Assembly: GCA_036171775.1 (NCBI GenBank)
Contig: JAVHRR010000006.1
Coordinates: forward strand, 1-56,198
DNA from: Minisyncoccota bacterium
GTDB taxonomy: Bacteria; Patescibacteriota; Minisyncoccia; Phycocordibacterales; GWA1-40-21
Direction of reading: 5' to 3'
DNA: 56,198 nucleotides
The position numbers and the translations under genes were made by a program. The notes beneath the pieces were generated by a model, which was given only the letters and a program-made list of their open reading frames with translations, searched no databases and was not told the DNA's origin. Positions within the stretch are counted from its first letter, which is position 1, and each line of letters starts with the position of its first letter. Positions 2,747 to 54,816 of the stretch are shown one piece after another.

Positions 2747-3199
2747 ATGTCATTACACAAACAAATAAAAGACGGGATAAAGGAATCGATGATAAAAAAG
2801 GATACACTTCGTCTCACTGTACTTAGAAATATACTTTCTACTTTTAATAATGAAATGATCGCCAAGAAAATGACCGTTCTAGAACTTTCAGATGAAGATG
2901 CAACTACAATAATTAGAAGATTGATAAAACAAAGAAAAGATTCTATAGACCAATTTACTAAGGGTAATCGTATGGACTTGGTACAAACAGAAGAAGCTGA
3001 GATGAAATTGCTGGAGTCTTTATTACCCCAACTTATGAGTAGAGATGAGATTGAGAAAATTGTAAAAGCAAAAGTTGATGCTGCAGGCACAATAGACAAA
3101 ACAAAACTTGGTCAATTTATGGGAGGAATAATGAAAGAACTTAAAGGAAAGGCAGACGGAATGCTAGTAAAAGAAGTATTGGAAGGATTAGTAAAATAA
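2747..3199 (+). CDS. yqeY: GatB/YqeY domain protein
   Basis: 150 aa. IKDGIKESMIKKDTLRLTVLRNILS and KLGQFMGGIMKELKGKADGMLVKEVL match the YqeY pattern. Confidence 0.85.
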   Translation: MSLHKQIKDGIKESMIKKDTLRLTVLRNILSTFNNEMIAKKMTVLELSDEDATTIIRRLIKQRKDSIDQFTKGNRMDLVQTEEAEMKLLESLLPQLMSRDEIEKIVKAKVDAAGTIDKTKLGQFMGGIMKELKGKADGMLVKEVLEGLVK

Positions 3200-3220
3200 C
3201 CTTATAAATAGATAATACGA

Positions 3221-3258
3221 AACAGCGCTTGATTTGCTTACAAATCAAGCGCTGTTTT
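3221..3258 (+). terminator. Intrinsic terminator
   Basis: 16-bp stem AACAGCGCTTGATTTG / CAAATCAAGCGCTGTT with loop CTTA and a T-run. Confidence 0.8.
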
Positions 3259-3260
3259 AG

Positions 3261-21658: not shown

Positions 21659-21678
21659 GAAGTTATAAATTTGAAAGC

Positions 21679-21708
21679 AAAAGCCGGGGGTAATCCCCCG
21701 GCTTTTTT
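21679..21708. terminator. Bidirectional intrinsic terminator
   Basis: AAAAGCCGGGGG-TAAT-CCCCCGGCTTTT, flanked by A- and T-runs between convergent genes. Confidence 0.85.
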
Positions 21709-28101: not shown

Positions 28102-28141
28102 CAAAAACACGAAGTTCGCCATGGCGAACTTCGTGTTTTTG
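28102..28141. terminator. Hairpin terminator downstream of lysS containing the 20-nt palindrome AAGTTCGCCATGGCGAACTT
   Basis: CAAAAACACGAAGTTCGC-CATG-GCGAACTTCGTGTTTTTG. The palindrome core is at 28112-28131. Confidence 0.75.
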
Positions 28142-28157
28142 TATGTATTATTGTGTT

Positions 28158-28184
28158 CCTAAAAAGCTAAGAAGCTACAAGCTA
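28158..28184. repeat. AGCTTNTT-octamer repeat element (reverse orientation), copy a
   Basis: CCTAAAAAGCTAAGAAGCTACAAGCTA, which is the reverse complement of T-AGCTTGT-AGCTTCTT-AGCTTTTT-AGG. Confidence 0.7.
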
Positions 28185-29652: not shown

Positions 29653-29670
29653 TTTTTAGAGGTGTAGGTT

Positions 29671-29691
29671 ATAGCTTTTTAGCTTATTAGG
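29671..29691. repeat. AGCTTNTT-octamer repeat element (forward), copy b
   Basis: AT-AGCTTTTT-AGCTTATT-AGG. Confidence 0.6.
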
Positions 29692-42804: not shown

Positions 42805-43329
42805 TTATACTTCTACTGTACTTTTATCTTTTCTTTCGATTCCAATCTCCTCCTCATAATCAAGCATCGCGTGTATTGCTTCGTCAGCTTTGCTTCTGAC
42901 TTCTTCGTACTTTTCGGTAAGTTCCTCAGCTTTTTCTGGGTTAGAAATTTCTAATTCATTTAGAAATTTCTCAACTCTCTCGTCCATTTTATCTAGATCT
43001 ACTGTTTCTTTAGAATCGATACCGAATTCTCTTTTTTCAAAATCAACAACTTCTCCTGTCGCTTTGTTTGCTTCATCCATTAATTCATTGTATTTGTGTG
43101 CTTCATCTCTGCCCTGATTGTATAATTCTGCTAGCTTGTCATTTGCTGCTTGTAATTTTTCCCAACGATTCAAAAGTGGTCCGTGACCATGAACCCTCTT
43201 GTATTCTTCTACAACCGGCTCATCTGGTGCCATGGCCTTTTTGAGTTCTTTAAGTGCATCCAAATTTGCCTCATCGAATTTTTCCTTTGTGTATTGTTTT
43301 TTCTCTTCACCGAAACCAAAAAATTTCAT
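42805..43329 (-). CDS. Hypothetical acidic coiled-coil protein (174 aa)
   Basis: ORF rich in E, K and D. No family recognised. Confidence 0.55.
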   Translation of the reverse strand: MKFFGFGEEKKQYTKEKFDEANLDALKELKKAMAPDEPVVEEYKRVHGHGPLLNRWEKLQAANDKLAELYNQGRDEAHKYNELMDEANKATGEVVDFEKREFGIDSKETVDLDKMDERVEKFLNELEISNPEKAEELTEKYEEVRSKADEAIHAMLDYEEEIGIERKDKSTVEV

Positions 43330-45623: not shown

Positions 45624-45630
45624 CAGAAGG

Positions 45631-45656
45631 TAGCTTGTAGCTTTTTAGCTTATTAG
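45631..45656. repeat. AGCTTNTT-octamer repeat element (forward), copy c
   Basis: T-AGCTTGT-AGCTTTTT-AGCTTATT-AG. Confidence 0.7.
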
Positions 45657-45689
45657 ACCATTCAAAAAAACTAAAATAAACTTTTTATT

Positions 45690-45723
45690 CCTAAAAAGCT
45701 AAGAAGCTAATTCCTACAAGCTA
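45690..45723. repeat. AGCTTNTT-octamer repeat element (reverse), copy d; overlaps the ftsQ stop
   Basis: CCTAAAAAGCTAAGAAGCTAATTCCTACAAGCTA. Its reverse complement is nearly identical to copy e. Confidence 0.7.
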
Positions 45724-46544
45724 GTTTTTAGTTCAAAATTAACTTTATTTCCAAATCTTAAGTCAATATATTTGATTTTCTTTAGAGATTCTATATCATT
45801 TTTTATATATCCGTTATCAACTAGAGCCTGAAGGTTGACTAGTGATGACACGAAGCTTCTTTTGTCATTTAGAATTATTTTTCCTCCACCAACAAGATAA
45901 ACTTCGTATTCATGTTCATCTACAGCATTAAAATATTTTGGCGAAAAAGACATTTTCTTAAATGTGATATACAAACTAGAAATATTCTTAAAATTGTCTT
46001 TTAAATACAACTGACCAACTGGATTTTGATCCTTAATCAAACCAAAGTACTCTGGAAAAGCACTCTCTGAAAAATTTGGCGCTTCTTCAAAAATAAAACC
46101 ATTTGAATCCATATAGTAGCAGACCTTTATGTCTGCGGTCGCGCCCTTACACCATAAGTTTTTAGACTCCCTTTCTGTAACCGCTATCTCGATTTTATCA
46201 ATTCCGTGAACATAAACATTCACCGTGCCGATTTTCTTAAAAGTATTTAATATTTCATTTTCGATTTCAGCTTCACGGAGCAAAATTATATTATCTGTCG
46301 GAATTATCCATAAATAAACTTTACTTATTTCAACCTCAACTAATTTTAAAATATTTTCCGTAGAAACAGATGAATTGCCTGTAACTACAATATTTTTTAT
46401 ACGAACTTGATCTTTAGTGAGTCCCAAAACTGCCAGTGAAATAAAAAATAATATAAAAATAAAGTAAGCCCCTATCTTTTTCACAAGACCGACTTTTCTT
46501 TTTTTATTTAGAGACGCACCTATGTTTGATCTTTGATATGCCAT
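45714..46544 (-). CDS. ftsQ: Cell division protein FtsQ/DivIB-like (POTRA)
   Basis: 276 aa with a TM helix, then a POTRA-like VRIKNIVVTGNSSVSTENILKLVE. Confidence 0.7.
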   Translation of the reverse strand: MAYQRSNIGASLNKKRKVGLVKKIGAYFIFILFFISLAVLGLTKDQVRIKNIVVTGNSSVSTENILKLVEVEISKVYLWIIPTDNIILLREAEIENEILNTFKKIGTVNVYVHGIDKIEIAVTERESKNLWCKGATADIKVCYYMDSNGFIFEEAPNFSESAFPEYFGLIKDQNPVGQLYLKDNFKNISSLYITFKKMSFSPKYFNAVDEHEYEVYLVGGGKIILNDKRSFVSSLVNLQALVDNGYIKNDIESLKKIKYIDLRFGNKVNFELKTSL

Positions 46545-46635: not shown

Positions 46636-47913
46636 TTACTTTTTTGCTATAAATTCTCTTCCGCCCATATATTTTCTGAGCACTTCTGGTATTTTTATAG
46701 AACCATCTGCCTGCTGACCATTTTCAATTATTTGAATCAAAATTCTTGGTGTGGCTATCGCCGTGTTGTTTAGTGAATGTACAAACTTCAGCTTTCCATC
46801 TGCATCTCTATATTTGATATTAAGTCTTCTTGCTTGAAAATCATGAAAATATGAACATGAATGGGTCTCGCCATATTTATTCTTTGATGGCATCCAGGTT
46901 TCAACATCGTATTTTTTTACCTGCCCTAGTCCCAAGTCACCTCCACAGTTTACAACAACGTGATATGGAAGATTGAGCGCTTGCAATATATCTTCAGCGT
47001 TAAGCAAAAGCTCTTCGTGATATTTTACACTTGTCTCATGACTTGCTTCACAAATAACAACTTGCTCAAATTTCATAAATTCATGAACTCTGTAAAGTCC
47101 TTTCACGTCTTTACTATAACTCCCTGCTTCTCTTCGAAATGCAGGTGAAAAAGCCAAAACTTTTTTAGGTAAATCATTTTTATCAATAACTTTGTCAGCA
47201 AAATAGCTCATGGTTGCAACTTCAGCGGTACCAGCAAGATAATCAGTGTCTTGAGTCTTATACATATCATCCTCACCTTGTGGCAAATATCCTGTACCAA
47301 GTAATGTGTCTCTTTTTACGAGTGAGGGAACAAACATGACTTTATAATCACTCTTTTTTTCTCTAAACAAATCCATTGTAAGTTGCCAAACCGCAAACTC
47401 TAGCTCTGCTCCTTCATTTTTCAAAAAATATCCACGAAAACCAGAAACTCTAGAGCCCGCTTCAAAATCAGCAAGATCAAGCTTTTCCATAAGCTCTACA
47501 TGGTCTTTTGGTATAAAATCAAACTTTGGAATTTCTCCCCAAACTTTTACCTCTTTGTTATCGGCATCTGAGGTACCTTCTGGCACAGAAATATCTGGAA
47601 GGTTTGGAACTTGAAGCATAATCTCTTGCCACTTTATCATGACGGCCTTAAGCTTTTCTTCTTCTTTTTGTAAAGTTTCTTTTAAAACCTTCATCTCGGA
47701 TATAAGTCCTGCTCTTGCAACAGCGTCAGTAATTTGTGGAAGTTTAAAAGATACAGCATTTTGGTCTGCTCTCATTTTTTCTATAGTTGTAAGCAATTCT
47801 TTTCTTTGGTCGTCTAAAGAAATGAGTTCAGTGGGATCAAACTTGAGATTTTTCTTTTTTGCCCCCAGTATGATGAGTTCTTTATTTTCTCTGATGAATT
47901 TGATGTCTAGCAT
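46636..47913 (-). CDS. serS: Seryl-tRNA synthetase
   Basis: 425 aa with an N-terminal coiled-coil arm and class II motifs (FRREAGS, TAIATPRILIQIIEN). Confidence 0.95.
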   Translation of the reverse strand: MLDIKFIRENKELIILGAKKKNLKFDPTELISLDDQRKELLTTIEKMRADQNAVSFKLPQITDAVARAGLISEMKVLKETLQKEEEKLKAVMIKWQEIMLQVPNLPDISVPEGTSDADNKEVKVWGEIPKFDFIPKDHVELMEKLDLADFEAGSRVSGFRGYFLKNEGAELEFAVWQLTMDLFREKKSDYKVMFVPSLVKRDTLLGTGYLPQGEDDMYKTQDTDYLAGTAEVATMSYFADKVIDKNDLPKKVLAFSPAFRREAGSYSKDVKGLYRVHEFMKFEQVVICEASHETSVKYHEELLLNAEDILQALNLPYHVVVNCGGDLGLGQVKKYDVETWMPSKNKYGETHSCSYFHDFQARRLNIKYRDADGKLKFVHSLNNTAIATPRILIQIIENGQQADGSIKIPEVLRKYMGGREFIAKK

Positions 47914-48055
47914 GATTGATTTTTAACGAGCGTAGCGACTATAAAAATCATCACCCCGTCAAATTGGCTTTTTATTTGACTGGGGTAATAAGAATATATC
48001 GCCAAGCTCTTTTATTTTACTAAAACTAATTTTTACTGTGATTTATTCTATCAGA

Positions 48056-48064
48056 TGCTACAAT
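48056..48064 (+). promoter_or_regulatory. Extended -10 element TGCTACAAT ending 7 nt before the dprA ATG (leaderless-type promoter)
   Basis: There is no SD, and the spacing puts the expected start site at or next to the ATG at 48072. Confidence 0.45.
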
Positions 48065-48071
48065 AAACTCA

Positions 48072-48944
48072 ATGTTAAAAGATTTTGAAATAATCGAACT
48101 TGAAAGCGAAGAAATTCCAGAAATGCTTCGTAAAATTGCCGATGCACCGGAAAAAATATATCTGCAAGGTAAACTTCCCTCACCTGATGCAAAAATACTT
48201 TGTGTTGTTGGTTCTCGTAAATACTCTCAATATGGAAAAGATGTCTGCGAAAAGCTTATATCAGGTCTTCGAGGATACAATATATGTATAGTATCTGGTC
48301 TTGCCCTTGGAATAGACGGAATAGCTCATAAAGCGGCCCTAGATGCGGGCTTAATGACGATTGCGGTCCCTGGTTCAGGCCTTCATGAATCGGTCTTATA
48401 TCCAAGCACACACAGACAGCTCGCCGAAAAAATCCTCGAAGCTCGCGGCGGTCTGATTTCAGAATTCGAACCAAAATTTCGCGCTACTCCTTACAGCTTT
48501 CCGCAAAGAAATAGAATAATGGCTGGAATGTCACATGCCGTACTTGTAATAGAAGCAGAAATAAAATCCGGCACACTCATCACTTCCAAATTTGCCACGG
48601 AATACAATCGGGATGTTCTCACAGTCCCCGGTTCAATCTTTTTCAAAAATTCCGAAGGGCCAAATATGCTTATTCGTCTTGGAGCAACACCTGTGCGAAA
48701 CAGTGAAGATATTTTAGAAGCACTTGATTTTAAAATAAATGAAACACCTCAAAATTTAGAACTCAAATATTCTGATTGTTCTCCCGAAGAAATGCTTGTA
48801 GTAAAAATTCTTAATGAACCATTAGAAAAAGATGAATTGATACGACAAATAAAAATGCCTGTGTCGAAAGCGAGCACAGTGATTTCTATAATGGAGATTA
48901 AAGGATTGATTAAGGAGAGTATGGGTGAAATTAGATTGACATAA
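48072..48944 (+). CDS. dprA: DNA processing protein DprA
   Basis: 290 aa with a Rossmann-like core (VVGSRKYSQYGKDVCEKL...IVSGLALGIDGIAHKAAL) and a C-terminal winged-helix tail. Confidence 0.9.
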   Translation: MLKDFEIIELESEEIPEMLRKIADAPEKIYLQGKLPSPDAKILCVVGSRKYSQYGKDVCEKLISGLRGYNICIVSGLALGIDGIAHKAALDAGLMTIAVPGSGLHESVLYPSTHRQLAEKILEARGGLISEFEPKFRATPYSFPQRNRIMAGMSHAVLVIEAEIKSGTLITSKFATEYNRDVLTVPGSIFFKNSEGPNMLIRLGATPVRNSEDILEALDFKINETPQNLELKYSDCSPEEMLVVKILNEPLEKDELIRQIKMPVSKASTVISIMEIKGLIKESMGEIRLT

Positions 48945-48945
48945 C

Positions 48946-48972
48946 CTATAGCAAGGACAGTCCTTGCTATAG
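48946..48972 (+). other. 12-bp-stem hairpin directly after the dprA stop (no clear U-tract)
   Basis: CTATAGCAAGGA-CAG-TCCTTGCTATAG. Confidence 0.6.
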
Positions 48973-49019
48973 ATAACCAATTACACGTTTTTCCTATTGT
49001 AACTTAAGGTATATAATCT

Positions 49020-49042
49020 CAAGTTCGCCATGGCGAACTTGG
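49020..49042. repeat. Palindrome CAAGTTCGCCATGGCGAACTTGG (copy 2 of the 20-nt palindrome), left flank of the Cas2-fold gene
   Basis: The core at 49021-49040 is identical to 28112-28131 and 49481-49500. Confidence 0.85.
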
Positions 49043-49053
49043 TATTTTAACAA

Positions 49054-49455
49054 TTATAAACCTAAAGTGTTTTTATAAACATTCTCCTCTCCTGTGTACG
49101 ACTTCGCTAGTTTGAAAGTCTTTAATTGATTTAAAAGACCAATTGATTTTACATAATCTAGAAAATCCTTTGGTAACGGTGATGGACCGACCCAAACACT
49201 TTTTTGTATCATTATAAAATTGAATTTTTTCAAATGTCTTCTAAACCAATCCCTTTCTTTTTTCTTCTCATGTGGAATGTCATACATAACAATAAGTTTC
49301 TTTGGTGCTGCCTTTTCGAGAGTACAATTAAAATATTGATATTGATGATATTTGTATTCACGTTTGTTTTTGCGTTCTTTATCTTCATTTGCAGTAAATA
49401 TTGGTATACCGAAAGAATTCACCGGAATTCCTTTATATTTACGATATTTTTTCAT
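49054..49455 (-). CDS. Cas2-fold / PaaX-like small protein (133 aa), orphan
   Basis: KKLIVMYDIPHEKKKERDWFRRHLKKFNFIMIQKSVWVGPSP follows the Cas2/PaaX-middle-domain pattern h-h-YDI-x4-(K/R)R-x8-L-x3-GF-x3-Q-x-SVW. No cas genes or array are nearby. Confidence 0.6.
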   Translation of the reverse strand: MKKYRKYKGIPVNSFGIPIFTANEDKERKNKREYKYHQYQYFNCTLEKAAPKKLIVMYDIPHEKKKERDWFRRHLKKFNFIMIQKSVWVGPSPLPKDFLDYVKSIGLLNQLKTFKLAKSYTGEENVYKNTLGL

Positions 49456-49478
49456 ACATTCATTCTATCACCACTTCC

Positions 49479-49503
49479 CCAAGTTCGCCATGGCGAACTT
49501 GGG
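49479..49503. repeat. Palindrome CCAAGTTCGCCATGGCGAACTTGGG (copy 3), right flank of the Cas2-fold gene
   Basis: Core at 49481-49500, 24 nt upstream of the Cas2-fold start codon. Confidence 0.85.
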
Positions 49504-49531
49504 TGCATGTAGGTATAAGTATTGGAGGAAA

Positions 49532-49627
49532 ATGAAAATGCCAGTTTCGAAAGCTTCAACTGTAATTTCTATAATGGAGATTAAAGGGTTAATAAAAGAA
49601 AGTATTGGAGAAATTCGGTTAACTTAA
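49532..49627 (+). pseudogene. Displaced duplicate of the dprA 3' end (31 codons) with its own GGAGG and ATG
   Basis: MKMPVSKASTVISIMEIKGLIKESIGEIRLT versus the DprA tail KMPVSKASTVISIMEIKGLIKESMGEIRLT. By my count, 15 codons differ synonymously and 1 non-synonymously. Confidence 0.7.
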
Positions 49628-49691
49628 CAGTAATATTTTAAAACAAAACCCGCTGCACAATTGCAACGGGTGGCAGATAAATCTGCGCTTT

Positions 49692-50078
49692 TTACGAATG
49701 CCATGGATCCTCCTGCAGCGAATCTATAAATTCCTGCTTACGTTTTTTTACCAGAGCGATCAGTTTTTTGTCGGTAGCGAAGGCTTTCTTTCTTGATGCC
49801 AAATATTTAGTTGCATCATTTTTAGAAAGAAAAACTCCTCTCCAACGGTCAGTAAGGTAGGACACCGAATTCGACTCCACCTTCTTTCCTCTGTGATATG
49901 TAACTAGAACTAAAGGTTCTTCATTACCCCCATCGACTTCAACGGCACCTATTTTATCGACGACACATGGGCCAACAATGGCCAATGGCTTAATATCGTC
50001 AGAAGACATGTACCAAAACGTATCGCCGACAGACAGAACCTTCAAAAACTTCGCTGCATTTAAAATAACGTTTGCCAT
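49692..50078 (-). CDS. Hypothetical protein (128 aa from ATG at 50078)
   Basis: AAGGAAGG RBS is spaced for MANVILN. GC is higher than neighbours. No family recognised. Confidence 0.55.
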   Translation of the reverse strand: MANVILNAAKFLKVLSVGDTFWYMSSDDIKPLAIVGPCVVDKIGAVEVDGGNEEPLVLVTYHRGKKVESNSVSYLTDRWRGVFLSKNDATKYLASRKKAFATDKKLIALVKKRKQEFIDSLQEDPWHS

Positions 50079-50164
50079 TTGTAGCACCTTCCTTTATCGA
50101 GGCTTGACCACCATCTGTCCAAAGTTTATCACACTATTCTCCACTTGTCAATAATAAGTGATAT

Positions 50165-50746
50165 TTACCTTTCTATTACAATATATTCACCGTCCATTAG
50201 TGTTATTGTTTCCAAATTTTCTTTATATAATTTTAGTGTTTCTAGGAATGAATCAATTTTTTCATTTATTTTTTGATTATAATTAGATTTCCAATGAGGA
50301 ATAAATTTTATGGGTAATAGTCCCAATCCTTCCCCCACATCGAGGTTCTTAATAACCCCGTAATATTTAGAAATAGCATCTGCTCCACCAGAACTACCAA
50401 CAATAGTCTTTCCATTCAATTCTTCTCTCCAATCACCAACTGTTTCTAACACTGAGATAAGTAATTCGGGGTCGCCGCCTTGAAAAAATAATACATCAGA
50501 ATTTTTTAATTGATCTATGAAATTTTCAGGCAACGCGAGTTCCAACTTAAAATCCTTAATGAATTTAGAAAAAAAATCGTGATCGTTTTTAAATCTATCT
50601 TTCCAATCATCATTGCTGCGTGCAAATAAGCAATCAAGAATTTTGATAGGTCTATTATTAATTCCTTTTACTAATTCTTCACAAAATGCTTTTCCACCAT
50701 CTTGTGCTTTATATATGTATCCGCCTATTAAAATATATTTGGTCAT
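50165..50746 (-). CDS. Peptidase S51 / class I glutamine amidotransferase-like protein (tentative)
   Basis: 193 aa. LFFQGGDPELL and IVGSSGGADA resemble the S51 GGN...G.SAGA nucleophile elbow. The assignment is weak. Confidence 0.4.
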   Translation of the reverse strand: MTKYILIGGYIYKAQDGGKAFCEELVKGINNRPIKILDCLFARSNDDWKDRFKNDHDFFSKFIKDFKLELALPENFIDQLKNSDVLFFQGGDPELLISVLETVGDWREELNGKTIVGSSGGADAISKYYGVIKNLDVGEGLGLLPIKFIPHWKSNYNQKINEKIDSFLETLKLYKENLETITLMDGEYIVIER

Positions 50747-50948
50747 GATGCTATTTTATTTACGTTAAATTATATCAAAAATTTGCACAAAATAACATTT
50801 GTGTGTAATAATGCACTTCGATGAACCGGATAGTAGAATTTCAAGTCATTGCTTTTTGTTTTTTCTACACGGTCGTTTAACTGTCGATATCATTAGTAAA
50901 ATAACTTTTTGAGGTTTCAGTTTGGGTTTATAGCAATATAAAAACAAC

Positions 50949-53132
50949 TTGAAATTTCACTACCCGGTGAAACTTTTAATTGTTGAGTCTCCGTCAAAAG
51001 CGAAGACGATAGAAAAATATTTGGAAGGTGCATATACAGTCCGAGCAAGCGTCGGGCATATTCGTGATTTACCAAAGTCCAACAAAGACGCTATTGATAT
51101 TCCTGGCGGTTTTATTCCCCATTACGAGATAAGTCCTGGAAAAGAAAAAGTTGTTTCTGAAATAAAAAGCTTAGCAAAAAAAGCTGATGAAGTATTACTC
51201 GCAACCGACCCTGACCGAGAAGGAGAAGCTATTGCATGGCATATTAAAGAAGCTGTTGGTTTGAAAAATCCAAAAAGAATTCGTTTTTATGAAATTACAA
51301 AAGACGCTATTAAAGAAGCGCTTACTCATCCTACTGAAATAGATGACAGCCTTAGAAAAGCTCAGGAAGCTCGAAGAGTTCTTGATAGACTTGTAGGTTA
51401 TGATCTTTCTGGGCTTATCTGGAAAAAAGTTCGTTATGGACTTTCTGCGGGACGCGTTCAATCCCCCGCTCTTCGTATTATTATGGAAAGAGAAAGAGAG
51501 ATACGCGCATTCAAGCCTGAACAGTATTGGACAATCGAAGCTGACACAGAAACAAAAGATAAGACAAAAATTCTTTTAAATTGCGACGAAGAACCTCGTG
51601 ATAAAAAACTTGTAGATAAAATTCTTGAAGTCGGAAACAAAGAAACCTGGACTGTAAAAAGTGTTACTGAAACTGAAGCAAAAAGAAGCGCAAAAGCTCC
51701 ATTTACCACATCCACACTTCAACAAACTGCCAGCACTCGACTTGGATATGCTCCATCTAGAACAATGGGAGTCGCTCAGAAACTATACGAGGCCGGTCTT
51801 ATTACATACATGAGAACAGATAGTACAAACTTGAGCGCTGTTGCACTTGATAACATCGGCATTATGGTCACAAAAAAATACGGAGCAAACTATGCAAAAA
51901 GAACTGTGTACGCTACAAAAAGTAAAAATGCACAGGAAGCTCACGAGGCTATCAGACCAACAGATGCAAATAAAGAAAGTGCTGGTCTAAATGATGAGCA
52001 AATTGAACTTTATGATCTTATCTGGAAAAGAACTGTTTCTTCACAAATGTCAGATGCAAAAATATTGAGAACAAAAATAACTGCTATTGTGGACGCGGGC
52101 GAGATTCCTACATTTTCAATAAACGGTTCAAGAATGCTTTTTGATGGATGGTTAAAAGCTGATCCAGGAGCTCGTGGTGAAGATGTTGAACTTCCAGTTG
52201 TGCAAAAAGGTGATGTTTTGAAATTGATTGAACTAAGAAGTACAGAAAAATTTACTGAACCGCCAGGAAGATATTCTGAAGCTGGACTTATTAAAGAACT
52301 TGAAAAAAGAGGCATCGGAAGACCTTCTACTTTTGCTTCTATTATGAAAACGATTGAGGCTAGAGGTTATGTTGAAAAACAAAACAAAGCTCTTTTCCCT
52401 ACCGACACTGGTGAAGTTGTGAGTGATTTCCTTGAAACAAACTTTCCAAATTACATAAGTGATACTTTTACAGCAGAAATGGAGGACAAGCTAGATGCTA
52501 TCGCAGAAGGAAAAGCTGAATATTTGAAAACCTTGAAAGATTTCTACGGGCCATTCCAAAAAGAAGTCAAAGCTAAAGGTGGAATAGAGAAAGTTACAAA
52601 TCTTGGCGAGGCCGACCCAAGTATGAAATGTCCAAAATGCCAAGGGCCAATGATTATTAAACTTTCAAAGAATGGTAAGTTTTTGAGCTGTAAAAATTAT
52701 CCTGAATGTGTCGGTGCTAGAAAGATTACCGGTGAAGAGCTTGAGGGACCAAAAGAAACTGGTGAAATGTGTCCAGACTGTACAAAAGGTAAACTTGTAG
52801 AAAGAGAAGGTAAATTTGGAAAATTTATTTCATGTGCAAACTATCCAAAATGTAAATACATTAAAAAAGGAGAAGGTGCACCTATAAACTCAACTGGTAT
52901 AAAGTGTCCTATCTGTAAAACAGGTGAAATGGCAGAAAGAAAAGGAAGGTTTGGAATATTTTATAGCTGCTCAAACTATCCAAAATGTAAGTACGCTATC
53001 AAAGCAAAGCCAACGGGCAAACTTTGCCCTACTTGTGGAGCTTTGATGATGCTCGGCACTAAGACCATTCCTGAAAGATGCTCAGACAAACTTTGTCCGA
53101 TGCACAATCCGCACAAAATTGAACAAAAATAA
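50949..53132 (+). CDS. topA: DNA topoisomerase I
   Basis: 727 aa with Toprim (LLIVESPSKAKTIEKYL, DPDREGEAIAWH), the active-site region GLITYMRTDS and four C-terminal CxxC...CxxC ribbons. The ORF-track start is TTG at 50949; GTG at 50967 is also possible. Confidence 0.93.
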   Translation: MKFHYPVKLLIVESPSKAKTIEKYLEGAYTVRASVGHIRDLPKSNKDAIDIPGGFIPHYEISPGKEKVVSEIKSLAKKADEVLLATDPDREGEAIAWHIKEAVGLKNPKRIRFYEITKDAIKEALTHPTEIDDSLRKAQEARRVLDRLVGYDLSGLIWKKVRYGLSAGRVQSPALRIIMEREREIRAFKPEQYWTIEADTETKDKTKILLNCDEEPRDKKLVDKILEVGNKETWTVKSVTETEAKRSAKAPFTTSTLQQTASTRLGYAPSRTMGVAQKLYEAGLITYMRTDSTNLSAVALDNIGIMVTKKYGANYAKRTVYATKSKNAQEAHEAIRPTDANKESAGLNDEQIELYDLIWKRTVSSQMSDAKILRTKITAIVDAGEIPTFSINGSRMLFDGWLKADPGARGEDVELPVVQKGDVLKLIELRSTEKFTEPPGRYSEAGLIKELEKRGIGRPSTFASIMKTIEARGYVEKQNKALFPTDTGEVVSDFLETNFPNYISDTFTAEMEDKLDAIAEGKAEYLKTLKDFYGPFQKEVKAKGGIEKVTNLGEADPSMKCPKCQGPMIIKLSKNGKFLSCKNYPECVGARKITGEELEGPKETGEMCPDCTKGKLVEREGKFGKFISCANYPKCKYIKKGEGAPINSTGIKCPICKTGEMAERKGRFGIFYSCSNYPKCKYAIKAKPTGKLCPTCGALMMLGTKTIPERCSDKLCPMHNPHKIEQK

Positions 53133-53225: not shown

Positions 53226-54764
53226 ATGTCATCAGAAGAACTTATAGCATTGATGGATTCCCCGTCACAGAAAGACAAAGAGTTTATACAAAAAGCTTAT
53301 AATTTTGCGTTGAAAGCTCACGAGGGACAACTTCGAAAATCCGGTGAACCTTACTTTACTCACGTGTATGGTACCGCGCTCATACTCGCAAGTTTAAAAA
53401 AGAGAGCGACTACAATAGTGGCTGGCTTACTTCATGACTCAATTGAAGATGGTGTTGCTACAGAAGAAACAATAAAGAAAGAGTTTGGTGAGGAAGTACT
53501 TTTTTTGGTAAATGGAGTTACAAAACTTGGAAAAGTTAAATACACTGGTGCAGAAAGACACGTTGAAAGTTTAAGAAAATTCCTTGTAGCAGCAGCACAA
53601 GATATTCGTGTACTTGTCATAAAACTTGCCGACAGACTTCACAATATGCGCACACTAAAACATGTTCGTCCTGATAAACAACAAAGAATAGCCTTAGAAA
53701 CTTTGGAGATTTATGCGCCACTAGCAAACAGACTTTCTATTAGAATGCTTTCTCGTGAACTTGAGGATTTGTCTTTGGAATACATTAATCCAGAAGAATT
53801 TAAGAAAACAAAAGAACTTTTGAAAAGCAAGGAGGAAGAATCGATCCTAGAATTAAATAAAGTTATTAAATACGTAAAAAAATCTTTAGCTGAAGAAAAT
53901 ATAACAAATTTTAAAACAGATTATCGACAAAAAGGAATCTACAGCTTACACAAGAAACTCAAGACTCACGACAATGATATAACCAAAATTTTTGATATTC
54001 TTGCTATTCGTATCAACGTGGCAAACATTACAGACTGCTACAAAGTACTGGGTATTATTCATAGTATAACCAGACCGATTCCTGGCAGAATTAAGGACTA
54101 TATTGCGGTCCCTAAACCAAACGGTTATAAAAGCCTGCATACAACTGTGCTAACAAAAGATGGGGTTACAATAGAAATACAGATTCGTACTTTTGAAATG
54201 CACCATGACTCAGAGTACGGTATAACTTCTCACATTTCATATAAAGAAAATGGATCAGTTAAGCAAAAAGAAAATTCAGAATCAAATTGGTTTAAACAAT
54301 TTCTCCCTAAGGTAATTAACTTCCCTGCGCCATCTGAAAAGAATCCAGCTGGGTCTCCAGGATGGATAAATGAATTGGCCGAATCACAAAAACATATTAA
54401 AACGGATGCTGACAAAGAAAACTTTATTGAAGATCTTAGGGTGGACTTTTTCAATGATAGAATATTTGTACTTACACCAAAAGGCGATGTTGTAGATTTG
54501 CCGATAGGATCCTGCGCTTTGGATTTTGCATTTGCGATCCATTCTGATATAGGAATTCATACAAGTGGAGCAAAAATTAATAGAAAAATGGTTTCTTTCG
54601 ATACAAAGCTAAAAAATAACGATATTGTTGAAATAATTATTAAAGAATCAAGCAAACCATCTTCAAAGTGGCTTGAAATGGCCAAAACGAACATGGCAAA
54701 AAGACACATAAGCAATTATTTGGAAAAAAACAAAAGTAAAAATCAAATTCCGAGACAAAAATAA
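53226..54764 (+). CDS. rel: RelA/SpoT homologue ((p)ppGpp synthetase/hydrolase), short form
   Basis: HD domain (HDSIEDG), synthetase (RIKDYIAVPKPNGYKSLHT) and TGS (VLTPKGDVVDLPIGSCALDFAFAIHSDIG). It ends about 60 aa after TGS, so it lacks the ACT/RRM end. First ATG is 53226; the track starts at TTG 53205. Confidence 0.9.
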   Translation: MSSEELIALMDSPSQKDKEFIQKAYNFALKAHEGQLRKSGEPYFTHVYGTALILASLKKRATTIVAGLLHDSIEDGVATEETIKKEFGEEVLFLVNGVTKLGKVKYTGAERHVESLRKFLVAAAQDIRVLVIKLADRLHNMRTLKHVRPDKQQRIALETLEIYAPLANRLSIRMLSRELEDLSLEYINPEEFKKTKELLKSKEEESILELNKVIKYVKKSLAEENITNFKTDYRQKGIYSLHKKLKTHDNDITKIFDILAIRINVANITDCYKVLGIIHSITRPIPGRIKDYIAVPKPNGYKSLHTTVLTKDGVTIEIQIRTFEMHHDSEYGITSHISYKENGSVKQKENSESNWFKQFLPKVINFPAPSEKNPAGSPGWINELAESQKHIKTDADKENFIEDLRVDFFNDRIFVLTPKGDVVDLPIGSCALDFAFAIHSDIGIHTSGAKINRKMVSFDTKLKNNDIVEIIIKESSKPSSKWLEMAKTNMAKRHISNYLEKNKSKNQIPRQK

Positions 54765-54768
54765 CAAA

Positions 54769-54802
54769 TAGCTTGTAGGAAGTAGCTTCTTAGCTTTTTA
54801 GG
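54769..54802. repeat. AGCTTNTT-octamer repeat element (forward), copy e
   Basis: T-AGCTTGT-AGGAAGT-AGCTTCTT-AGCTTTTT-AGG. Confidence 0.7.
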
Positions 54803-54816
54803 AGATACACAAATAC

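Follow-up and report, generated by a model that had tools for sequence, protein, structure and literature searches.

How did a small gene bracketed by palindromes come to stand between two copies of the end of a core gene, and why has the displaced copy stayed intact? Both questions are raised by the dprA locus of a Minisyncoccota bacterium (assembly GCA_036171775.1), which lies in the 56,198 nt of contig JAVHRR010000006.1 that we analysed (positions 1 to 56,198, hereafter the window; G+C = 33%) and whose nearest relatives are metagenome-assembled Patescibacteria labelled Paceibacterota, Nomurabacteria or Taylorbacteria. Here an intact dprA gene is followed by a minus-strand gene for a 133-aa protein of Cas2 fold, enclosed by two copies of one palindrome (together, the cassette), and then by a second copy of the last dprA codons. 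A preliminary description had taken this arrangement for a mobile element that targets the dprA 3′ end and carries a surrogate gene end. With a probability of roughly 0.5, we favour instead a palindrome-bracketed module residing in a recombination hotspot, where the two tails derive from different functional dprA alleles.

Two copies of the dprA end

The features of the locus are given below in the order of the plus strand, with the tail copies named t1 and t2 and the loci of relatives numbered with the prefix L.

48072-48944, plus strand: dprA, intact, 290 aa, ending in t1 (Pfam DNA_processg_A 1.3e-67, DprA_WH 1.1e-4; TIGR00732 3.3e-65)
48847-48945, plus strand: t1, the last 33 dprA codons with the stop and one further base, found as direct repeat D2; it is the functional gene end
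48946-48972: perfect 27-nt hairpin CTATAGCAAGGACAGTCCTTGCTATAG with 13-bp arms, directly 3′ of the dprA stop and partly common to L026; it looks like the native 3′ flank
49019-49042: palindrome 3′ of the Cas2-fold gene, with AAGTTCGCCATGGCGAACTT as its core (49021-49040), terminator-like on the plus strand
49054-49455, minus strand: 133-aa Cas2-fold (PaaX_M-type) gene, recognised by PaaX_M, CRISPR_Cas2, TIGR01573 and Foldseek
49462-49470, minus strand: extended -10 box TGATAGAAT, 6 nt before the ATG, as read from the sequence
49478-49503: CCCAAGTTCGCCATGGCGAACTTGGG, the palindrome 5′ of the Cas2-fold gene and a candidate operator or binding site
49504-49529: spacer from the palindrome to t2, with a loosely similar spacer and the same t2 boundary in L017
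49530-49628, plus strand: t2, displaced, intact copy of the last 33 dprA codons

The two tail copies align over 99 nt with 80% identity at an offset of 683 nt, and between them stand, in order, the 27-nt hairpin, the palindrome CAAGTTCGCCATGGCGAACTTGG, the 133-aa minus-strand open reading frame (ORF) and the second copy of the palindrome. Exact copies of CAAGTTCGCCATGGCGAACTTGG occupy 49020-49042 and 49480-49502, with zero expected by chance. Over the 31 codons of 48852-48944 and 49535-49627, 19 nucleotide differences change 16 codons, 15 of them synonymously (including multi-step exchanges between AGC and TCA for Ser and between AGA and CGG for Arg) and one from M to I. When 19 substitutions were placed randomly in 100,000 trials, none of the trials gave one amino-acid change or fewer and the mean was 12.9, indicating that both copies must stem from sequences that each evolved under protein-level constraint. 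The preliminary description had reported this layout, the positions of the two tail copies, the 15 synonymous codons with the single M-to-I change and the constraint on both copies, and all of them held on re-analysis; the duplicated dprA tail and the palindrome-bracketed gene are confirmed.

It had also credited the downstream copy with start signals of its own. Both are present, as GGAGG (49524-49528, within the spacer) stands 3 nt before an ATG at 49532-49534 and 9 nt before the next ATG at 49538. The first ATG, however, is the inherited codon -32 of dprA, a Met in the DprA of relatives too, and the GGAGG before t2 is not conserved in L017.

An assembly chimera joining the dprA ends of two strains would be in keeping with the 20% divergence of the copies, which is like that of two strains' alleles, and with an independent Logan contig (L176, SRR25490545) that begins exactly at the first base of t1. 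That same contig, however, is 100% identical to window positions 48852-50032 (1181 nt), covering t1, the cassette, t2 and about 400 nt beyond, and for this reason we do not regard the arrangement as a chimera. The same architecture recurs in L017, from a different metagenome, and decayed versions occur in L014/L096 (a GenBank metagenome-assembled genome) and L001/L055, so that the chance of an artefact is close to nil.

A Cas2-fold family with cognate palindromes

The 133-aa protein matched PaaX_M (PF20803, 5e-14, residues 55-119) and CRISPR_Cas2 (1.5e-8) in Pfam and scored above the cutoff of the NCBIfam Cas2 model TIGR01573 (31.1 against 24.5 bits), while its best Foldseek matches were all Cas2 or VapD, at modest E-values from 8e-3, and PADLOC returned generic Cas2 matches only. 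Profile and structure searches agree with the Cas2/PaaX-like fold proposed in the preliminary description, and the protein belongs to the Cas2 superfamily by fold and to the PaaX_M family by sequence. In common with Cas2 and VapD it has an Asp at the end of beta1 (D59, within YDIP); YDI (Y58, D59, I60) is invariant in the family, and D59 is so in 27 sequences. We found 1785 homologues, with 340 matches among GTDB species representatives and two to three paralogues in many genomes of about 1 Mb each, and their public annotation is often 'CRISPR-associated endonuclease Cas2' or 'PaaX regulator'.

Both labels misfit. Unlike Cas2 and VapD, the protein is nearer to PaaX_M in sequence and comes with no cas1 and no VapX-like partner in the contexts examined: Pfam found no cas1 among the neighbours in 8 distinct contexts, no CRISPR-like array was present among the window repeats, and every locus read has a single ORF inside the palindromes. 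In relatives of the window, no integrase, cas1 or CRISPR-like array lay within about 4 kb, bearing out what had been noted for the window itself. PaaX, a GntR-type repressor of phenylacetate catabolism, is the closer likeness in that PF20803 is the best Pfam match, a palindrome lies by the promoter and longer relatives of the 133-aa protein add an N-terminal winged-helix-like segment. Yet PaaX has about 300 aa, whereas this protein has 133, lacks Pfam matches to the N-terminal winged helix-turn-helix of PaaX and to PaaX_C, scores 13.8 bits against the cutoff of 264.55 for TIGR02277 and has a site on both sides; no paa gene or antitoxin partner occurred in any genomic context read. Context and architecture set it apart from both the Cas2 of CRISPR systems and the PaaX repressor. 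It gave no Y1_Tnp match, and no His-hydrophobic-His motif is among its invariant residues. The family was not found described in the literature that we searched on Cas2-like proteins, PaaX and orphan Cas2.

An exhaustive profile search identified proteins of about 160 aa as the nearest relatives outside the subfamily of the window. They have the N-terminal motif YKG..VN.FG.P and the Cas2-like domain in common with this subfamily and carry an extra helix/wing segment of about 26 aa with weak HTH_45/PadR matches, which the alignment shows to be absent from the window subfamily. From these comparisons the family is best described as 'mini-PaaX' proteins, among which the window subfamily has lost most of the winged helix.

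The palindromes are a property of the family. Among the 88 units with sufficient flank, a CCATGG/CTATAG centre occurred up to 180 nt from the gene on its upstream side in 71 units, on its downstream side in 59 and on both in 54, where the background would give 0.07 per search interval, in agreement with the earlier proposal that the palindromes and the gene form one unit. Conversely, 86 of the 108 perfect palindromes of at least 18 bp in 1.26 Mb around family genes lay within 150 nt of such a gene, and the remaining 22 were solo, about 8 of them of the CCATGG type. The palindrome has the form A..T...CCATGG...A..T (about 20 bp), with A at -7, T at -4 and their mirror positions invariant. Arm positions 1-7 were 77-94% complementary, position 5 pairing as GC in 35 cases, AT in 28, TA in 28 and CG in 27; same-genome paralogues bear different arm variants, and in the clade of the window the variants TTCGCC, TTCACC and TACACC are each altered on both arms. 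This covariation points to the palindrome as a putative recognition site of its protein, either as duplex DNA or as a hairpin.

The layout around the start of the gene is likewise conserved, running from the upstream palindrome over 8-12 nt to an extended -10 box (TGATAGAAT or TGATATAAT) and over a further 6-10 nt to the start codon, while the downstream palindrome follows 3-60 nt after the stop codon. The form with TGATATAAT after the upstream palindrome also occurs in L001, L004, L009, L012, L014, L179 and L180, and the relatives of about 160 aa, including L179 and L180, have the same palindrome-promoter layout. Family genes lack a Shine-Dalgarno sequence, and with an extended -10 box that ends just 6-10 nt ahead of the start codon, as it does in the window, L001, L004, L009, L012 and L014, their mRNA would be leaderless or nearly so. 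We propose that a dimeric Cas2-fold protein binds both cognate palindromes, that the gene is probably autoregulated, because the upstream palindrome abuts the extended -10 box, and that the downstream palindrome may double as a hairpin or terminator.

Other occurrences of the palindrome were of several kinds. The window holds one solo copy, together with the promoter-like pair that follows it:

28102-28141: perfect hairpin of 40 nt, CAAAAACACGAAGTTCGCCATGGCGAACTTCGTGTTTTTG, which contains the palindrome with 2 mismatches and is flanked by a class-II aaRS gene and a 224-aa ORF, with a TTGCAC...TACAAT promoter-like pair directly downstream

This copy may act as a terminator or as an additional binding site, or it may be what is left of a cassette. 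In L014 (3080-3099), L097 (5597-5616) and L098 (7402-7421) a palindrome lies in frame inside the Cas2-fold ORF (...EVRHGEL...), within the variable linker from the N-terminal motif to the Cas2-like domain, and L097 has four copies in total. The dprA-adjacent cassettes of L037 (1100-1650) and L177 (1-350) have a third palindrome, some 90 nt past the upstream one and enclosing a short AT-rich segment, with no tail relic visible. A match to GCCATGGC at 43229 was discarded as a chance coding-sequence match with no surrounding palindrome. Avoidance of CCATGG as a restriction site was ruled out by 9 occurrences against 4.6 expected, and extended terminal inverted repeats were rejected, as the 54-nt arms are only 72% complementary and their outer 30 nt are AT-rich background.

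Origin of the two tails in the dprA-topA islet

Among relatives the gap between dprA and topA ranges from 154 to 2004 nt and holds assorted small genes as cargo, and no recombinase was found in the gaps of 15 relatives or in that of the window. Beyond t2 the window gap contains the following.

49629-50948: rest of the hypervariable gap, with a 131-aa ORF (minus strand), an S51-peptidase-like ORF (minus strand) and a conserved topA promoter segment (50767-50837), by Pfam and nucleotide matching
49648-49671, minus strand: terminator-like hairpin after t2, serving the 131-aa ORF

Positions 49640-50760 had no nucleotide match in any fetched locus, whereas 50767-51000 matched many. The 131-aa ORF (49692-50087) gave no Pfam, NCBIfam or PADLOC match and no nucleotide match in the fetched relatives.

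The cassette is patchy at this site, being present in 3 of the 33 closest dprA loci. One pair of these loci records a single recent event: the cassette-free L016 and the cassette-bearing L017 share a stretch of 1724 nt with 99.5% identity, their dprA genes then diverge by 18% in the final 180 nt, and past the gene the two sequences are unrelated. We read this switch as the breakpoint of a homologous-recombination event, situated 60 codons ahead of the dprA stop and so upstream of the duplicated segment. The comparison of dprA loci for empty sites, which the preliminary description had proposed, thus brought out the patchiness; it did not yield precise empty and filled boundaries, as L016 and L017 are the only near-identical pair and their downstream flanks are unrelated.

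Second dprA tails among the 33 closest loci stand beside several unrelated kinds of cargo: the Cas2-fold cassette (L017), NYN genes (L018, L030), a DUF3267-like membrane protein (L020/L021) and a MarR-like gene (L044). The relics start at different codons, at -33 and intact in the window and L017, at -22 in L018 and L030, at -17 in L014, L001 and L044 and at -13 in L020; that of L014 is supported by tblastn (E = 0.005), and that of L001 by eye only, unsupported by tblastn. L018 carries a third relic of about 9 codons (3191-3260) after the second relic and a hairpin, which suggests serial events at one gene end. The -17 relics of L014, L001 and L044 adjoin the same palindrome type, and the L044 junction (ATGAA|ATGGAG) looks like the -33 form minus 48 nt. 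A decaying tail without palindromes in relatives would have spoken against the preliminary description; decay is seen in L014, L001 and L044, but the palindromes are present. In L044 the cassette-type palindrome beside the relic is solo, the relic has lost its stop codon, and the MarR-like cargo is bracketed by an inverted repeat of about 29 nt, cattctcaaattcctaagaatttgagaatg (740-780 and 1100-1140).

Chromosomal islets of gene exchange flanked by core genes are familiar, as is homology-facilitated illegitimate recombination in transformable bacteria, and the dprA-topA gap resembles such islets in being a short slot between core genes, with varied small cargo and breakpoints in the flanking core gene. 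We know of no description of serial relics of a flanking-gene end inside the islet as a hallmark of such hotspots.

At other genomic sites the picture differs. None of 84 units at non-dprA sites showed a duplicated neighbour-gene end, and of 87 units tested only those of the window, L017 and L014/L096 did; no dprA tail remnants lay near cassettes at other sites. Other matches between left and right flanks, strongest in L129, L141 and L149, are none of them a duplicated neighbour-gene end. Because the duplication is absent at the 84 other sites and because other cargo is also flanked by tail relics, it is a property of the dprA site and not of the cassette, and the claim that the cassette targets the dprA 3′ end and brings a surrogate end was not supported.

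These results bear directly on a strict site-specific element, in which the cassette would insert at dprA codon -33 and supply t1 as the surrogate end, leaving the native end as t2. The precedent is e14 or phage 21 at E. coli icd, where an intact icd is accompanied by a displaced icdC pseudogene end (Hill et al. 1989, cited in PMC13626634) and where the icd copies differ mostly conservatively and recombination between them restores one chimeric gene (PMC13626634). Like icd, dprA keeps an intact 3′ end with a displaced second copy beyond the insert. The window and L017 share the codon -33 boundary with cassette and spacer adjoining, the -17 relics beside the same palindrome type are derivable from it by a 48-nt deletion, and no tail is as atypical as the t1 of L017, which is foreign to a gene body 99.5% identical to that of L016. 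However, the prophage e14 spans 15 kb, encodes its own integrase and has a fixed att core, whereas the dprA insert measures about 0.6 kb, no integrase or recombinase lies in or near any copy, and at dprA the relic boundaries vary (-33, -22, -17, -13) and unrelated cargo fills the same slot between t1 and t2. In addition, the one readable recent event (L016/L017) breaks 27 codons upstream of the duplicated segment, the identical core of t1 and t2 in L017 is at most 11 nt (23 nt in the window), and the t1 of the window agrees with its gene body and has kept a native-like hairpin. Together with the absence of end duplication elsewhere, these points make a site-specific element unlikely.

Which tail looks native differs between the two loci. 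By nucleotide distance, window t1 is nearest to the tails of L016 and L018, which also have the nearest gene bodies, and t2 is nearest to L026, a cassette-free locus in which the sequence after the dprA stop resembles the hairpin after t1; in the window, therefore, it is t2 that looks foreign. In L017 t1 is the outlier, with at least 17 differences from every other tail. The notion of a foreign copy attached to dprA thus fits L017 and is not supported in the window.

Comparison of the t2 copies pointed to a mosaic. Window t2 and L017 t2 differ at 14 nt, with 3 amino-acid changes. Their 5′ 63 nt differ at 6 positions, against 7-10 at best from any functional tail, while the 3′ 36 nt show 2-4 differences from functional tails of other genomes and 8 between the two t2 copies. 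In the window t2 the 5′ part is nearest to L017 t2 and the 3′ part to the functional tails of L019, L023 and L026, so that this t2 appears chimeric, the pattern that a knock-in with the right crossover inside t2 may be expected to leave, small though the numbers are. The cassette-t2 junction probably arose once and is old, because the -33 boundary adjoining the cassette is common to the window and L017 and the -17 relics adjoin the same palindrome type. That t2 had arrived with its downstream cargo was considered and dropped, since the window and L017 share the cassette-spacer-t2 junction and not the downstream flank; no relative of the window, L017, L020, L030 or L044 had the post-t2 sequence directly after a native dprA tail.

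We therefore favour the hotspot reading, in which relatives would swap the content of the dprA-topA islet through recombination that breaks within the dprA 3′ end. An old event would have left the cassette with a complete dprA end (t1) on one side and the displaced last 33 codons (t2) on the other. As t1 with the dprA body on one side and t2 on the other are homologous to any naive dprA allele, the whole t1-cassette-t2 segment could then be knocked into such alleles by ordinary homologous recombination after DNA uptake, crossing over on the left within the dprA body and on the right within t2. In every such transfer, part of t2 would be replaced by the functional tail of the recipient; this partial renewal would keep t2 intact and make the t1/t2 differences almost all synonymous, and t2 would decay where transfer stops.

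The intactness of t2 could alternatively mean that it is a functional small gene, a 31-32-aa DprA winged-helix fragment that some lineages retain under purifying selection. Two lineages whose cassettes are only 81% identical both have it intact, the 14 nt differences between these copies entail just 3 amino-acid changes, with 5 synonymous and 1 non-synonymous in the 5′ 63 nt, and in the window GGAGG stands 9 nt before the second ATG. Yet t2 is decayed, truncated or absent where the cassette lies at dprA in L014, L001, L037 and L177, and also in L044; the start signals are those already described, an inherited Met codon and a GGAGG not kept in L017; and the 3′ part of each t2 is nearer to functional tails elsewhere than to the other t2, which fits recombinational replacement. 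A lone 31-aa winged-helix piece would moreover be unlikely to fold, and we consider a t2 gene distinctly improbable.

Possible mobility of the module and its meaning

The palindrome-gene-palindrome unit behaves as a self-contained module. Other copies, sought as the preliminary description had advised, were patchy and spread over many genomic contexts, including dprA-topA, sigma70/UvrD, rpsG-fusA, an arylsulfotransferase and topA-greA, and the L017 protein is 85% and 83% identical to copies at other sites against 81% to that of the window. The sole recent paralogue pair, in genome MFWB01 (L126 8585-9028 and L146 9979-10422), is 97% identical in amino acids and 93% in nucleotides over a shared 444 nt that runs from about 25 nt before the ATG, in the interval between palindrome and gene, through the downstream palindrome. 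The upstream palindrome of L146 matches the downstream palindrome of L126 when inverted. No target-site duplication was found in 31 strictly defined units (longest common flank word 5.6 nt against 5.5 nt when shuffled), nor were there abutting flank repeats of at least 3 nt in these units, and the unit holds no transposase. In the hotspot reading the module would thus be duplicated and relocated without target-site duplication and without a recombinase of its own.

Several of these results also suit an immobile cassette, a vertically inherited and autoregulated small regulator whose operator is reused as a terminator and whose copies are old paralogues: same-genome paralogues are mostly 56-75% identical, target-site duplications and a transposase are lacking, the upstream palindrome lies against the -10 box in the manner of an operator, and the longer relatives have a winged-helix-like segment like that of PaaX-type repressors. 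Set against this are the presence of the cassette in only 3 of the 33 nearest dprA loci, the different genomic contexts of the nearest homologues, the insertion of one copy into the rpsG-fusA interval, the recent duplicate, 93% identical, that starts some 25 nt ahead of the ATG and stops at the downstream palindrome, the in-frame palindromes copied into the variable linker in L014, L097 and L098, and the covariation of operator and terminator, which is needless unless both are recognised. Strict immobility accordingly remains a minority possibility that we hold to be improbable.

Among mobile systems the unit differs from a DDE-type insertion sequence in that no target-site duplication abuts the repeats. 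It is more like REP/RAYT (REPtrons) and IS200/IS605, with one small gene bracketed by its own cognate hairpin-forming palindromes, no target-site duplications, occasional solo repeats and repeats inside coding sequence. Unlike theirs, however, the protein is not an HUH/Y1 transposase; the solo repeats number about 8 of this type in 1.26 Mb, whereas REP sequences run to hundreds per genome; and instead of one gene with many repeats there are several diverged gene copies, each keeping its own repeat. A bolder view, to which we would assign a low probability, is that Cas2-fold proteins with cognate CCATGG palindromes form an unrecognised class of Patescibacterial selfish modules. The protein would then bind, nick or pair the hairpin or palindrome ends of its own gene unit, which would thereby be copied or recombined to new sites by a REP/RAYT or IS200/IS605 logic on a Cas2 fold, and at dprA the module would also ride the duplicated gene end as homology arms into naive alleles.

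Several points weigh against the hotspot reading that we prefer. The L017 t2 and its downstream flank do not match the cassette-free L016 (9 of 91 positions mismatched, evenly spread, and no flank match), so at least one further event must be assumed. The 5 synonymous changes and 1 non-synonymous change that separate window t2 from L017 t2 in their common 5′ part fit selection on t2 as well, and all tail comparisons rest on 93 nt, with small numbers. The homology-arm model gives no account of the first duplication event. Because same-genome paralogues are mostly old, mobility would be slow or largely historical. Finally, the window subfamily is without the winged-helix-like segment of its longer relatives, and the 133-aa protein itself, for which binding is only predicted, may not be the binder of the palindrome.

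The window has further features apart from this locus. A second family of intergenic repeats bears no relation to the cassette palindrome; its core, CTAAAAAGCTAAGAAGCTAC / GTAGCTTCTTAGCTTTTTAG, is found in both orientations and at five places:

28157-28178, 29664-29690, 45630-45656, 45689-45733 and 54759-54803: copies of the second intergenic repeat family

Near-identical GC-rich terminator-like hairpins (AACCGCCGGCGAGTATACGCCGGCGGTTTT) lie 326 nt apart at 1076-1111 and 1402-1437, with a weaker copy at 21673-21708. An Rfam scan of 47500-51500 returned a chance miRNA match only, and the tRNAs of the window are far from the dprA site.

Two aspects of these results are new: the series of dprA tail relics at the boundary of a recombinase-free islet, and the family-wide architecture of a gene with its cognate palindrome. 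The relics record the turnover of a tiny recombinase-free islet between two core genes and suggest that a duplicated gene end, serving as built-in homology arms, may let cargo spread by ordinary recombination. The family flags a systematic mis-annotation of orphan 'Cas2' genes in candidate-phyla-radiation genomes, and it offers a simple and testable protein-DNA pair from organisms that cannot be cultured. If the selfish-module view were true, these modules would represent a Cas1-independent link between a Cas2 relative and palindromic repeats, which would bear on the origin of the partnership between Cas2 and repeats in CRISPR.

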